A stretch of 36,370 nucleotides of DNA from a virus (Duplodnaviria > Heunggongvirae > Uroviricota > Caudoviricetes), in IMG/VR virus record IMGVR_UViG_2617270997_000026. One strand, written 5' to 3'. Position 1 is the first letter of the stretch. Each line of letters opens with the position of its first letter. The notes under the pieces were generated by a model that saw nothing but the letters and a program-made list of their open reading frames with translations, was not told the origin of the DNA and did no database searches. Position numbers and translations under genes: made by a program. This document shows positions 1-28,292 of the stretch, in pieces.

Positions 1-465
1 GGTTTGGGAGAAGGTTCTGCGTTGCCTGTTGGCGTACCAGTTCCTTGGCCTTCACCTACGCCGCCGACAGGCTGGCTGAAATGCAACGGGGCTGCTTTTT
101 CGGCTGAAGAATACCCGGAACTGGCAAAGGCTTACCCGACAAATAAATTGCCTGATTTACGCGGTGAATTTATTCGTGGCTGGGATGACGGACGTGGTGT
201 GGATGCCGGGCGACAATTATTATCTTCACAGGGGGATGCAATAAGAAATATTGAGGGATTCGCAGATGGCGGGATCGGCATGTCTTTTGATGCAATCAGA
301 GGGGCTTTTTACGATGCAGGAACACGATCAGCGACAATGGCGAATAACACAACTGCTATAGGCAAAACCGATGACCTTGGATTCGACGCCTCTCGTGTCG
401 TGCCAACAGCTAATGAAAACCGTCCACGTAACATCGCCTTTAATTATATTGTGAGGGCTGCATAA
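1..465 (+). CDS. Alternative tail-fibre C-terminal cassette (S'v-like), silent in this orientation, no own start
   Basis: Open frame from window edge. Codons 1-12 (G-L-G-E) match the LGLGE junction codons of the minus-strand fibre gene, so inversion fuses it in frame. Carries a PWP...GWLxCNG...LPDLRGxFIRGWD fibre-tip motif. Confidence 0.7.
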   Translation, partial: GLGEGSALPVGVPVPWPSPTPPTGWLKCNGAAFSAEEYPELAKAYPTNKLPDLRGEFIRGWDDGRGVDAGRQLLSSQGDAIRNIEGFADGGIGMSFDAIRGAFYDAGTRSATMANNTTAIGKTDDLGFDASRVVPTANENRPRNIAFNYIVRAA

Positions 466-25422: not shown

Positions 25423-25899
25423 ATGACGCACACACTGAATCCGGTCATCACTGTCACTGTGTCCGGTCCTGTGGGCAGCGGTAAAAGTTACGTACTGGCG
25501 CGGATAGAAGAGATGGTGAAACAGGAACTCGGAAACAGCGTCATTGTCGATGCTGCTGACGTGGAGAATGAGCGCCGTATGAATGGCGAAGATCTGACGA
25601 CCTGGCAGAAGCCACGGGGTGGCACAGTGATCAGGCTAGAGGAATACACGGGACAGGGCCTGTTGTCATACGGCGAGGAGCGTATCTGTCGGACGAATGA
25701 GCTGCTGGATGTTATATGCCCCACGGGCCGGCAACCCTGGATACTGCCCGATGCACTGCATGCCACCATTGCGGCACTGATGACAGTTTACGATCAGGAG
25801 CTGCTCATGAAGGAGTTACGTAAACTCACCGGTCAGCCAACAGAATGTTGTTCGTCTCCGAAGTACGGCAAACAGGAAAACGCCCCGGATAATCCTTAA
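25423..25899 (+). CDS. Small P-loop NTPase-fold protein, function unknown (accessory gene)
   Basis: 158 aa; ATG at 25423 after GAGGAGAA RBS; Walker A GPVGSGKS at residues 15-22, Walker B-like VIVD about 20 residues later; transcribed opposite to late arm. Confidence 0.7.
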   Translation: MTHTLNPVITVTVSGPVGSGKSYVLARIEEMVKQELGNSVIVDAADVENERRMNGEDLTTWQKPRGGTVIRLEEYTGQGLLSYGEERICRTNELLDVICPTGRQPWILPDALHATIAALMTVYDQELLMKELRKLTGQPTECCSSPKYGKQENAPDNP

Positions 25900-25918
25900 G
25901 ATACCTCCTGAACAGAAA

Positions 25919-25934
25919 CAGCCCTGAAGGGCTG
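25919..25934 (-). terminator. Intrinsic terminator closing the repressor operon
   Basis: Plus-strand cagccc-tgaa-gggctg hairpin; on minus strand followed by UUUCUGUUCAGG; lies just downstream of stop of 25937..26518 gene. Confidence 0.5.
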
Positions 25935-25936
25935 CA

Positions 25937-26518
25937 CTAAAAAAAGAAGTGTATTATTGCCCAAACAGCTATAACGATGATTCCCAGCCCAAGAGCCGAT
26001 TCTAACTTATCTTTGGCAGTCATTTTTACTGTTGTAGCGGGCGCAGGTAAGTCTTGCTGCTGTGGATTTTCTGTTAGTTGTTTACGAGAAGAAACATCGC
26101 CCCTATTAGTTTGCTTCATGTTGATTACAGATGCGTTATGGGCATTATCAGCAGCAATTGACTGAAGTTTTACAAAAGTTTTTGAATCTGTTTTAGCCAG
26201 AAGTAACCTATTTCCCGTAAACATTGCCTTAAAAGTGATAGTTTTTTTCGTCTTGTCCGCCGCACCAAGCAAACCTCCAATGACCAACCCTGCACCACCA
26301 AAGATTAATCCACCAAGCAAACCTGCGCCTGCCGCCTTACCTATACGGCTTTCCTCTTCACTATCCGCAAGTTCAATCGATAAAAGCTCTTCTTTCAGAT
26401 TTAATACAATATTTTCAGGAAAGCCTTGTTTTGGTTTTTTGGCAAACACGATGGTACCGAACCCCATGCTTGCCCACCCTTTAGGAAAACTTCCTGCGAT
26501 AACCTGAATCCCTGCCAT
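25937..26518 (-). CDS. Glycine-zipper membrane protein with C-terminal tail anchor (accessory, repressor operon)
   Basis: 193 aa from ATG at 26518 (AAGGTG 9 nt upstream); GKAAGAGLLGGLIFGGAGLVIGGLLGAA glycine-zipper segment; C-terminal hydrophobic anchor LGLGIIVIAVWAIIHFFF. Confidence 0.7.
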   Translation of the reverse strand: MAGIQVIAGSFPKGWASMGFGTIVFAKKPKQGFPENIVLNLKEELLSIELADSEEESRIGKAAGAGLLGGLIFGGAGLVIGGLLGAADKTKKTITFKAMFTGNRLLLAKTDSKTFVKLQSIAADNAHNASVINMKQTNRGDVSSRKQLTENPQQQDLPAPATTVKMTAKDKLESALGLGIIVIAVWAIIHFFF

Positions 26519-26608
26519 GTTCATCACCTTTTACATTAAAATTTCAGAACGCAGCATGATGCCGCCTTTGTCTTTTTTCTGATCCCATGGTAATTCAGCT
26601 GTTATTTT

Positions 26609-27595
26609 CTATTTAAGAATAAAACGGTATTTACTGTCAGGAGTGCTTTGCTGATCAAGTAGCAGTGAACGACATGGAGCAGTCAAAACCCGAGCATAAC
26701 TACCATCAGGGCTTATGTTAATGTAACAAACCTTGCCCTTAACACTATAATTTTCGGGGACGGATGCCTTTGCTGATACAGTAAATTTAAGGGTATGCCA
26801 GCCCGTTTTTTGCTTGTAGCTTGAAACCGAATGGAAATCATCTGAGTACTTATTTAACCCTGGAAACATGCTGCGCAGTGCGGGGATGGAATCTTCTATT
26901 ATTTTATCGTTGGTTTTAATGTTAAAAACGCTGGTTTCAGTAGAAGCTACTGCTTTGGCATTTCCCCATTTACCAGCGAACACAATCATTCCCACGAAAA
27001 ATATTGCTACAAGAACTAACACTCCCCCCAACACTACTACATGAGGCTTCCGGCTTCTGGTTGGTACAGTTGCGACTGATTTTGCACCGCTTTCCGATGG
27101 AGGTGATAGAGTTTTACTCTCATCACGAATATTCAGCAGATCATCAAAATAACCAAACACAGCCTGCAACTGCTCTTTGTCTAGGCCTTTAAGATGGGTT
27201 GTACCGAAATGCTTCAGACAGTATCTGTCACGGTCAAGACGATACCCAGGGTCAGTAAGCGCCATTATTTTGCTGACCAGAAGATTACAGTCCTTCATAT
27301 TCTGGATCTGTTGTGCATATCTCTGAAGGATCTCAACCGCACCATGATAATCAGCCGCAGTCATTTCATTAACTGTTTTGGTATTAAGTTTCGTGTGGAT
27401 CGTCATCCATAGCTCGCGCTTACTTTCCCCCAGATCAACCAATTCATCCATCAATCTGTGTAAATCGCGTTTTTGCAGCAACGAAATTGGTTGCTGGGCC
27501 GAAGGAAGTATGTCAGCAGAATAGTTATGAATGGTAACATCACCGCTGACAACGTTACCCACATCCCCGTTAACTGTTTGCTTCTCTTTACTCAT
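26609..27595 (-). CDS. Single-pass membrane protein (accessory, translationally coupled to repressor)
   Basis: 328 aa; ATG at 27595 overlaps repressor TGA (ATGA); one TM helix HVVVLGGVLVLVAIFFVGMIVFAG around residues 183-206; C-terminal about 120-aa extracytoplasmic domain with two Cys. Confidence 0.75.
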   Translation of the reverse strand: MSKEKQTVNGDVGNVVSGDVTIHNYSADILPSAQQPISLLQKRDLHRLMDELVDLGESKRELWMTIHTKLNTKTVNEMTAADYHGAVEILQRYAQQIQNMKDCNLLVSKIMALTDPGYRLDRDRYCLKHFGTTHLKGLDKEQLQAVFGYFDDLLNIRDESKTLSPPSESGAKSVATVPTRSRKPHVVVLGGVLVLVAIFFVGMIVFAGKWGNAKAVASTETSVFNIKTNDKIIEDSIPALRSMFPGLNKYSDDFHSVSSYKQKTGWHTLKFTVSAKASVPENYSVKGKVCYINISPDGSYARVLTAPCRSLLLDQQSTPDSKYRFILK

Positions 27596-28053
27596 CTTCT
27601 CTTGGTATTTTTGTTCATTATTCCACCTGTTCCTATGGTTACGTTACCTTTGATAACATTCCCCAGAACATCTCCATGAATAACCTGTTCCGCCCGTTCT
27701 CTGGAGGAGCCAGTAGTCAAGGCCGACAAAACTGAACCTTTGACCTGTAATGGTGCCTGCCGGTAGTGCTGCAGTAACTCCATTTCATCACGTGATAAAG
27801 TTATACCTGATGACTCCCCGGTAAGAATGAACTGTACATTGGCCCCAATTCTTGCAAAGGCTGCAAGTAACTCACCTCCGGGAACAGCAACCCCTCGTTC
27901 ATATTTCCCCCACATTTCTCTTGAAACGCCACAAAGGGCTGCTACTTCAGCCTGCTTGAGTGATAACCGCGAACGCTCAGCTTTGAACCGCGACGCGCAA
28001 AGAGAATCAAAATTCACATAAACCTCATTGACAATGAGAACAATAGTTCTCAT
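27592..28053 (-). CDS. Immunity repressor (XRE-family HTH, c/cI-like)
   Basis: HTH motif LSLKQAEVAALCGVSREMWGKYERG; divergent from ner-like early operon. ATG at 28053 has no SD (possibly leaderless); alternative GTG at 28017 with GAGG. Confidence 0.8.
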   Translation of the reverse strand: MRTIVLIVNEVYVNFDSLCASRFKAERSRLSLKQAEVAALCGVSREMWGKYERGVAVPGGELLAAFARIGANVQFILTGESSGITLSRDEMELLQHYRQAPLQVKGSVLSALTTGSSRERAEQVIHGDVLGNVIKGNVTIGTGGIMNKNTKRR

Positions 28054-28103
28054 AATCTATCACATATAAAACAAACATCATTGCATCAACAAAGGAGACA
28101 ACA
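28054..28103. promoter_or_regulatory. Immunity switch region (divergent repressor/early promoters, operators expected)
   Basis: 50-bp AT-rich spacer (ctatcacatataaaacaaacatcattgcatcaac) between divergent repressor and ner-like starts. Confidence 0.45.
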
Positions 28104-28292
28104 ATGACTTCCGAACAAGTTAAAAATCTCTTCCGTCAGCGTGGTATCACGTTTACCCGCTGGGCCGAAGAACACGGCTACAGCCGCAATGAGGTCTATC
28201 GTGTTCTCAATGGACAGACCAAAGCTCGTTACGGCAAAGCCCATGAAATTGCCGTAAAACTGGGATTAAAACCCACGTCAAATGCGGCATAA
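28104..28292 (+). CDS. Ner-like small DNA-binding regulator (first early gene)
   Basis: 62 aa; AAGGAG RBS; motif WAEEHGYSRNEVYRVLNG...GKAHEIAVKLGL consistent with Ner/Nlp-type HTH; position as Mu ner. Confidence 0.55.
   Translation: MTSEQVKNLFRQRGITFTRWAEEHGYSRNEVYRVLNGQTKARYGKAHEIAVKLGLKPTSNAA

Follow-up and report, generated by a model that had tools for sequence, protein, structure and literature searches.

A matching peptide motif at a prophage repressor tail and at the N-terminus of the adjacent membrane protein co-varies across temperate phages

Why should a phage immunity repressor end with almost the same peptide with which the next protein of its operon begins? This question is raised by the virus record IMGVR_UViG_2617270997_000026, a stretch of 36,370 nucleotides (nt; in the following "the window") that represents a BcepMu-like transposable prophage of Escherichia coli and is 100% identical to chromosomal segments of IAI39 and CE10. 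On the minus strand of the window, the gene of an XRE-type repressor (27592..28053) is followed by the gene of a single-pass membrane protein of 328 amino acids (26609..27595), which we call the partner. Judged from sequence comparison, there is about an even chance that the repressor tail and the N-terminus of the partner form a co-evolving homotypic pairing module, which would couple the repressor to a membrane-anchored anti-repressor or sensor.

Residues 120-140 of the repressor (RAEQVIHGDVLGNVIKGNVTI) align to residues 3-22 of the partner (KEKQTVNGDV-GNVVSGDVTI). The local alignment has a BLOSUM62 score of 55 and contains one single-residue gap, while shuffled versions of the partner protein (n = 5000) score 30.0 ± 4.5 and reach 55 only once. 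The shared motif and its one-residue offset had been proposed in an original prediction made from the sequence alone, and the interval given there (27540-27690) covers both motifs almost completely. More precisely, the repressor motif (QVIHGDVLGNVIKGNVTI, residues 123-140) is encoded at 27634..27687 (-). The partner motif, taken as residues 6-25 (QTVNGDVGNVVSGDVTIHNY), is encoded at 27521..27580 (-), and residues 6-22 of it (QTVNGDVGNVVSGDVTI) at 27530-27580 (-). Nothing in the rest of the window resembles either peptide in any reading frame (next best score 35), and a third motif-bearing open reading frame (ORF), which would be a candidate for a separate anti-repressor, was sought in the window and not found. 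A search of the concatenated motif peptides against a collection of 5.8 billion proteins returned two fragments only, both from the same two families. The window motif is internally repetitive with three G-[DN]-V units and chance similarity is somewhat inflated for this reason, a concern that the comparative evidence below removes. At the DNA level, the aligned stretch is 60% identical and the same codon is used at 4 of the 11 identical residues, so the codon differences noted in the original prediction are real.

The comparison covers the surroundings of repressor homologues at 38 loci in genomes and 80 loci on viral contigs, where the repressor tail was aligned to the N-terminus encoded by the following gene of the same strand. 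The loci were sampled by repressor-seeded searches and are not independent of phylogeny, and the start codons of the downstream ORFs were assigned mechanically. With redundancy reduced to 63 pairs (tail identity below 60%), the scores of cognate tails and N-termini average 36.2, while non-cognate combinations average 22.2 (standard deviation 7.2). For 18 of the 63 tails, the top score goes to the cognate partner alone, and in a permutation test none of 20,000 permutations reaches the observed score sum. The motif variants (among them GDVxGNV, NRVAGRDY, and FHGxVGQVxxGD) are divergent between phages and matched within a pair. Examples are GDVLGNVIKGNVT / GDVGNVVSGDVT, an Enterobacter pair (VSGQGNRVAGRDYNEN / VSGRENRTAGRDFHEN), a Gilliamella pair (QIFNGNIDGQVSAENIYNIG / QHFNHTVGQVAANNIYNIY), and the pairs at loci L097 (QVFHGDISGGVAGNNVIN / QIFHGTINGGVALGNVVN), L092 (HGDIGQNIYGNI / SGDVGQNVFGNI), and L066 (GKGHRFALGDYHEN / GQEHRIALGDYYEH). 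Next to repressors that are 59-64% identical to that of the window, the partner motif has shifted in step (QIFHGSVGQVIKGD / QSFHGDTGVVAGGD; QVIHGNVMGNVIEGG / QDVNGDVSGHVVGGD). Three isolated phages have the pair too, namely BcepMu (gp17/gp18, QVFHGSVGQAVKVEGN / QEFNKPVGQAIQAGEAN), Ps59 of Pseudomonas (gp17/gp18), and AP3, a P2-like phage of Burkholderia (gp39/gp38). The exact sequence seen in the window is missing from many repressor homologues, which carry another variant instead that matches their own neighbor; the absence from homologues that the original prediction named as a refutation thus applies in a trivial sense only.

Presence and absence are coupled as well: both motifs occur at 20 loci, neither at 29, the tail alone at 10, and the N-terminal motif alone at three (Fisher p = 3.6e-6), whereby the underlying composition score is derived from the matched pairs and the table is thus partly circular. 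At Lonsdalea and Pseudomonas loci, repressors without a tail adjoin homologues of Ps59 gp18 that begin at a position equivalent to its residue ~27, so that exactly the motif is missing. In the reverse direction, three Flk_N proteins (named after the domain described below) were looked up, and two of them have an upstream helix-turn-helix (HTH) repressor with a matching tail. In 27 non-redundant high-scoring pairs, the aligned motif segments are 12-30 residues long, 21 pairs align without a gap, and the genes are separated by -4 to about +90 nt. The motifs are enriched in N (3.9x), H (2.9x), G (2.3x), V (1.8x), Q (1.5x), and I (1.3x) and depleted of L (0.15x), P (0.3x), and K (0.7x), with M also low; residues identical between partners are mainly G, V, N, and Q. 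A single host genus or species can hold several motif classes (Serratia loci L002 and L011; Pectobacterium L003 and L014; E. coli P0001 vs. P0026/P0027). Hence, pairing specificity belongs to the pair and not to the host.

Both motifs bear marks of selection on the peptide. Among 19 partner homologues (44-82% identity), the N-terminal motif is the most invariant stretch, with Q6, G10, G13, N14, V15, V16, S17, G18, V20, I22, and Y25 unchanged in all of them. In the 33 codons of the repressor tail, E. coli and Serratia differ 13 times synonymously and 3 times non-synonymously; in the 106 codons before the tail, the counts are 42 and 37, respectively. By these codon counts, no part of the repressor is more constrained than the tail, and purifying selection is stronger here than in the body. 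The conservation of the peptide in both proteins, another claim of the original prediction, is therefore well founded. Close repressor homologues retain the same tail and distant ones differ (...VSGxGNRVAGRDYxExKK, ...QVFHGxVSGQxAGNxIxN, ...FHGSVGQ...). Gene conversion was considered and rejected as an origin of the match, since in the 27 pairs nucleotide identity is 58% and the codon is the same for only 44% of the 280 identical residues. A repeat acting at the RNA or DNA level is rejected on the same codon data, and the low codon sharing likewise speaks for the earlier view that no recent duplication took place. It is thus at the level of the protein that the match is maintained. Nor does it result from overlapping frames, because separate DNA segments encode the two motifs.

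By homology and gene position, the product of 27592..28053 (153 residues as annotated) is a predicted Cro/CI (XRE) phage immunity repressor. It matches Pfam HTH_31 above the gathering score (30.5 bits vs. a cutoff of 27), its closest solved structure is the N-domain of the P22 C2 repressor (E = 1.7e-9), and the related proteins BcepMu gp17 and Ps59 gp17 carry a repressor annotation. The gene is divergent from a Ner-like gene, which matches the IAI39 annotation. Translation probably starts at a GTG at 28017 (141 residues) and not at the ATG at 28053, because homologues begin at MNFDSL. In the AlphaFold2 (AF2) model, the HTH DNA-binding domain spans residues 15-78 (27820..28011 (-); helices with a predicted local distance difference test score (pLDDT) of around 90; Pfam match at residues 22-68). 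Two conserved helices follow at residues 88-115 (27709..27792 (-); modeled at 88-99 and 102-115, pLDDT around 86), a region in which ...YRxAPLxVKAAxLAALT is kept in the repressor alignment and which, going by the model, might serve dimerization. Residues 119-153, which include the motif, have a pLDDT below 50 in the monomer model and are predicted to be disordered. The tail ends with the polybasic stretch NKNTKRR (27595..27615 (-)). Tails of homologues end with KKK, KRK, or RKR, and a basic C-terminal run is shared by most motif-bearing repressor homologues. A Pfam search detects no S24 peptidase domain (PF00717) in the window repressor. In the repressor homologues P0068, P0069, and P0078, an S24 domain replaces the tail, and the motif tail thus sits where SOS-inducible repressors hold their inactivation module.

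The repressor and partner genes overlap by 4 nt in an ATGA (27592..27595 (-)) that contains the repressor stop and the partner start, suggesting translational coupling. The same 4-nt overlap occurs in BcepMu gp17/gp18 and at several further loci. The partner belongs to phrog_10002 (E = 8e-228; 24 homologues) and has four parts, namely the N-terminal motif, a helical Flk_N domain, a transmembrane segment, and a predicted periplasmic domain. Residues 1-29 have a pLDDT of about 40 in the monomer model and are, like the repressor tail, predicted to be disordered. The cytoplasmic Flk_N-like domain (residues 31-161, 27113..27505 (-)) is modeled with a pLDDT above 90, and the precomputed domains of P0108, a protein 100% identical to the partner, and of relatives include PF27202 (Flk_N). 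A low-confidence linker joins this domain to the predicted transmembrane segment (residues 182-205, 26981..27052 (-); hydrophobicity window 182-200, AF2 helix 191-205). The basic stretch RSRKPH before this segment predicts an N-in topology according to the positive-inside rule. The C-terminal α/β domain (residues 222-328, 26612..26932 (-); pLDDT above 90), which would accordingly be periplasmic, contains a conserved pair of cysteines (C290, C308) and is also found alone in other proteins.

In a profile search of 1.84 billion representatives, only 114 relatives were found. All Flk_N matches start within about 60 residues of the N-terminus, and nearly all relatives with the helical domain start with a G/N/V-rich motif of some class. 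Partners at other loci comprise proteins with a zinc ribbon and two transmembrane segments, small multi-transmembrane proteins, and soluble proteins of ~140 residues, all of which bear a motif. Including the Flk_N type, partner sizes range from 118 to 330 residues; most partners are membrane proteins and some are soluble (group 5). Since partners of different architecture all bear the mirrored motif, the motif behaves as a portable adaptor. Ten diverse partners gave no significant Pfam or PADLOC match, with one sub-threshold match to ORF6C, and for the 328-residue partner and the 196-residue product of the third operon gene PADLOC returned no known anti-phage system and only a fragment hit (E = 0.014).

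The anatomy of the pair recalls amyloid signaling in fungi and bacteria. The bacterial motif families are BASS1-10, which belong to Bell/NLR pairs (Dyrka et al., 2020, bioRxiv 10.1101/2020.01.06.895854), and BASS11, described for the Bab/Agp system of E. coli, which acts in abortive infection (Ibarlosa et al., 2024, bioRxiv 10.1101/2024.11.07.622273). As in BASS and FASS pairs and in HET-S/NWD2, a motif of ~20 residues is located at the C-terminus of the upstream product and at the N-terminus of an adjacent, collinear and often overlapping downstream product. The motifs here are also rich in G, N, Q, V, and I, poor in L and P, and placed on an otherwise disordered end. Moreover, several motif families occur on interchangeable globular domains, and the location in prophages is shared. 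In contrast to the described pairs, the C-terminal motif is carried by an XRE HTH repressor and not by a Bell, HeLo, TIR, or CHAT effector. The N-terminal motif is found on Flk_N, zinc-ribbon, or small multi-transmembrane proteins and not on an NLR/STAND or TPR-GreA/B-C-PIN (TGP) sensor, and no NTPase domain (NB-ARC, NACHT) was found in the partners. The hosts, unicellular Proteobacteria and their temperate phages, also set the module apart from the hosts of described amyloid pairs. Because it has neither an NLR/STAND or TGP sensor nor a cell-death effector, the two defining features, we do not class the module as an amyloid-signaling pair, although by analogy it may work like one.

How might such a pair function? 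We favor a scheme in which the disordered C-tail of the repressor and the disordered cytoplasmic N-terminus of the Flk_N protein stack as matching β-segments. The simplest geometry would be parallel and in register, as in amyloid-signaling motif pairs, and is favored because two disordered termini co-vary with identical residues. Variation of the motif between phages, with both partners always changing together, is the signature that a homotypic contact would leave. Such stacking would physically couple the lysogeny repressor to the membrane protein. In described amyloid-signaling pairs, the sensor carries the N-terminal motif and the effector or executor the C-terminal one. The membrane protein would thus be the sensor and the repressor its target, and the signal would most likely pass from the former to the latter. 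The membrane protein, which is co-expressed with the repressor in the lysogen and has variable C-terminal or periplasmic parts, might then be a signal-dependent anti-repressor. Upon activation or oligomerization, its N-terminal motif could capture or template repressor tails and pull the repressor off its operators. Induction would thereby be tuned or triggered in phages whose repressor lacks a RecA-sensitive S24 domain. An anti-repressor fits the replacement of the tail by an S24 domain in some repressor homologues. It also agrees with the finding of the module in groups of phages whose paradigms, Mu and P2, are not induced by the SOS response. The suggestion in the original prediction of an interaction element that links the repressor to the membrane protein is consequently strengthened on the side of motif co-variation, and the contact itself is what we infer from it.

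A more specific version, which we hold to be doubtful, is that the membrane sensor nucleates a cross-β fold and prion-like templating then inactivates the repressor cooperatively, while motif diversity keeps co-resident prophages orthogonal. With the same reservation, this version could extend to temperate phages of Proteobacteria of the BcepMu-like, B3-like, and P2-like groups. If true, it would be the first case of amyloid signaling acting on a transcription factor and would provide an SOS-independent route of induction.

Several observations weigh against the sensor-to-repressor scheme. The one-residue gap of the window pair is awkward for strict in-register stacking. About one third of the motif-like tails (10 of 30) have no matching neighbor in the DNA that was fetched, with L023, L026, L028, L105, and L106 being examples of such tails, and for the Flk_N protein of L123 no repressor was found within 2.5 kb. 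The partial circularity of the presence/absence table reduces its weight. Furthermore, the partners are neither NLRs nor cell-death effectors, and the amyloid analogy is therefore one of anatomy and composition; the direction of signaling and its output are purely inferred.

With these reservations in mind, the similarity could be explained in other ways. It is hardly conceivable that it has no function at all, being either a chance product of G/N/V low complexity or the relic of an old duplication. The triple G-[DN]-V repeat and the ease with which short low-complexity peptides match would be in line with this, yet the shuffle test, the permutation test and ranking over 63 pairs, the purifying selection on the tail, the invariance in the partner, and the synonymous divergence all argue for a maintained peptide. 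Also very unlikely is that the two proteins never meet, and that the same third factor reads both motifs (a protease, adaptor, or chaperone, for instance through a shared degron) or each protein associates with itself. The C-terminal tail of the Mu repressor is a ClpXP-controlled degron, and the disordered, basic-ended tails considered here would be compatible with such a role. A host factor, however, cannot explain why very different motif classes remain matched within one host genus or species. A phage-encoded factor would have to co-vary with the pair, and neither a third motif-bearing gene in the window nor another conserved gene at the loci was found.

Contact without a switch deserves more weight, even though we consider it unlikely. 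Here, a constitutive non-amyloid complex, formed by β-strand augmentation or as a small hetero-oligomer, would tether part of the repressor pool to the inner membrane, where it could buffer free repressor or localize the prophage or repressor without templating. Co-variation and coupled presence/absence demand contact and not amyloid, translationally coupled genes favor stoichiometric complexes, and the window pair aligns only with a one-residue gap. Identical aligned residues, G/N/Q/V ladders, and the gapless alignment of 21 of the 27 pairs are rather what parallel in-register stacking predicts and are rare in hetero-complementary interfaces; in addition, permanent sequestration of a repressor makes little sense without regulation. 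The signal could also run the other way, a prospect that we rate as distinctly unlikely. The tail of an attacked or aggregated repressor would template the partner, for instance when the anti-repressor of a superinfecting phage acts on the resident repressor, and the membrane protein would serve as effector of exclusion or abortive infection. A lysogenically expressed operon, which is where the module sits, is a typical place for exclusion genes such as rexAB and sieB. Most partners are membrane proteins, and amyloid signaling in Bab/Agp drives a membrane-targeting abortive-infection effector in E. coli. This arrangement is contradicted by the described pairs, in all of which the sensor bears the N-terminal motif and the effector the C-terminal one, while here it is the repressor that bears the C-terminal motif. 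Nor was there a PADLOC match or a pore-forming or Bell-like domain, the globular part of the window partner being Flk_N-like, and some partners at other loci are soluble.

Signaling from the membrane protein to the repressor, which we continue to favor, also has parallels outside amyloid systems. In extracytoplasmic function (ECF) sigma/anti-sigma pairs, the gene of a DNA-targeting regulator is likewise followed by that of a single-pass membrane protein, often with overlapping codons. The anti-sigma factor binds through an N-terminal part in the cytoplasm, its C-terminal part is periplasmic, and membrane sequestration controls the transcription regulator. The module differs from these pairs in that there is no kinship in sequence or fold and a short mirrored peptide takes the place of the anti-sigma domain. 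Moreover, the regulator is a repressor, so that its sequestration would have to depend on a signal. Known phage repressors are inactivated by S24 autocleavage (lambda CI, P22 C2), by anti-repressors such as P22 Ant, 186 Tum, and Gifsy GfoA (PMC3121763), or via a ClpXP-sensitive tail (Mu Rep). The motif tail takes the C-terminal place of the inactivation module in related repressors, some of which have S24 there. In contrast to the known anti-repressors, the candidate shows no homology to them, is membrane-anchored and co-transcribed with the repressor, and would be recognized via a mirrored peptide. In the literature outside subscription journals, including a 2026 review, we find no phage repressor that is linked to its neighbor by a mirrored or amyloid-type motif.

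Flk itself is a cytoplasmic, tail-anchored protein that regulates the flagellar secretion switch (PMC13344023). Partner residues 19-147 match the Flk N-terminal region (NCBIfam NF007987, model residues 14-143, E = 2.9e-12), and both proteins face the cytoplasm and are membrane-anchored. Unlike Flk, the partner has a periplasmic domain, as predicted above, and Flk proteins are not encoded beside a repressor. As a full-length Flk, the partner scores 46.6 bits, far below the equivalog cutoff of 353, and bona fide Flk proteins have no G/N/V-rich N-terminal motif. The N-terminal domain of a host flagellar regulator (Flk/Fluke) thus also occurs in a small family of prophage membrane proteins, which hints at a common origin of flk and the prophage Flk_N genes.

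If the pairing is real, it constitutes an unnoticed regulatory connection in the immunity region of many temperate phages, including BcepMu, Mu-like phages of Pseudomonas, P2-like phages of Burkholderia and Ralstonia, and E. coli prophages. It would offer a concrete mechanism for the inactivation of repressors without a RecA-sensitive domain and a first functional handle on the Flk_N domain family. Amyloid-type motif signaling, if that is its nature, would be extended from cell-death effectors to a DNA-binding switch. A real pairing would also suggest that the motif is a second determinant of heteroimmunity specificity beside operator recognition. Being short, swappable, and apparently orthogonal, the motif pairs could serve as connectors in synthetic biology.

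Further observations concern the compared loci. Natural fusions of the HTH protein and its partner were sought among them and none was found; long ORFs at L035, L086, and L112 were rejected as fusions and go back to masked sequence or over-extended start codons. The tail-less repressors of Lonsdalea and Pseudomonas (L006-L010, L017, L019, L021, L024) have a helical C-terminal domain of ~60 residues ending with ...RVLKLVVNR. In their downstream proteins, an amphipathic helix at the start precedes an internal segment rich in G and N (..ELIVKIKGDYGNINLGTQ..). Together, the two features may represent a different coupling module that replaces the mirrored motif. In other partners, two or three G/N-rich pseudo-repeats follow the mirrored motif. 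These are BcepMu gp18 (L120 2860-3642; for example ...VGQAIQAGEANIADRSVNIRAGSIGSVAGRDIVNVNHG), Ps59 gp18 (L121 2914-3510), and the partners of L005 and L078. The pseudo-repeats recall HET-s-type motifs, here on the side of the N-terminal motif. A conserved ORF of 88-90 residues (MEHRYISEERP...) is located directly upstream of the Flk_N gene at L123 (2232-2504) and L124 (2095-2361), both P2-like contexts; at L124, it separates the repressor gene from that of the motif partner.

In the window, the immunity region is placed between the leftward late genes and the rightward early operon. The leftward immunity operon consists of three genes, encoding the XRE repressor, the 328-residue partner, and a glycine-zipper membrane protein of 196/193 residues (25937..26527 (-)), for which phrog_12025 is the sole family assignment. 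The 196-residue product combines a glycine-zipper segment (GAGLLGGLIFGGAGLVIGGLLGA) with a C-terminal hydrophobic anchor. It does not contain the motif, and the third gene is not conserved across the other loci (it differs in BcepMu and Ps59), so that its membership in the motif module is doubtful. A terminator-like hairpin (25918..25935 (-)) closes the operon. On the opposite strand, a sigma-70-like early promoter (TTGACA-17-CATAAT, 28028..28056 (+)), proposed on the basis of 11/12 consensus matches only, faces the Ner-like gene (28104..28292). With the repressor start at GTG 28017, this promoter would be intergenic and outside the repressor ORF. Besides the Ner-like protein, the rightward early operon encodes an HTH protein of the IclR type, a DUF3102 protein, the transposase, and an ATPase of the ExeA type. 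A P-loop protein of 158 residues (25423-25899 (+); GPVGSGKS), annotated as "ABC transporter ATPase" and encoded between lysis cassette and immunity operon on the strand opposite to the latter, has a moron-like appearance and only weak PADLOC matches (HerA, SngB, E around 0.01). Of 5426 complete E. coli genomes, 97 (~2%) contain at least 80% of a 2.4-kb test segment.

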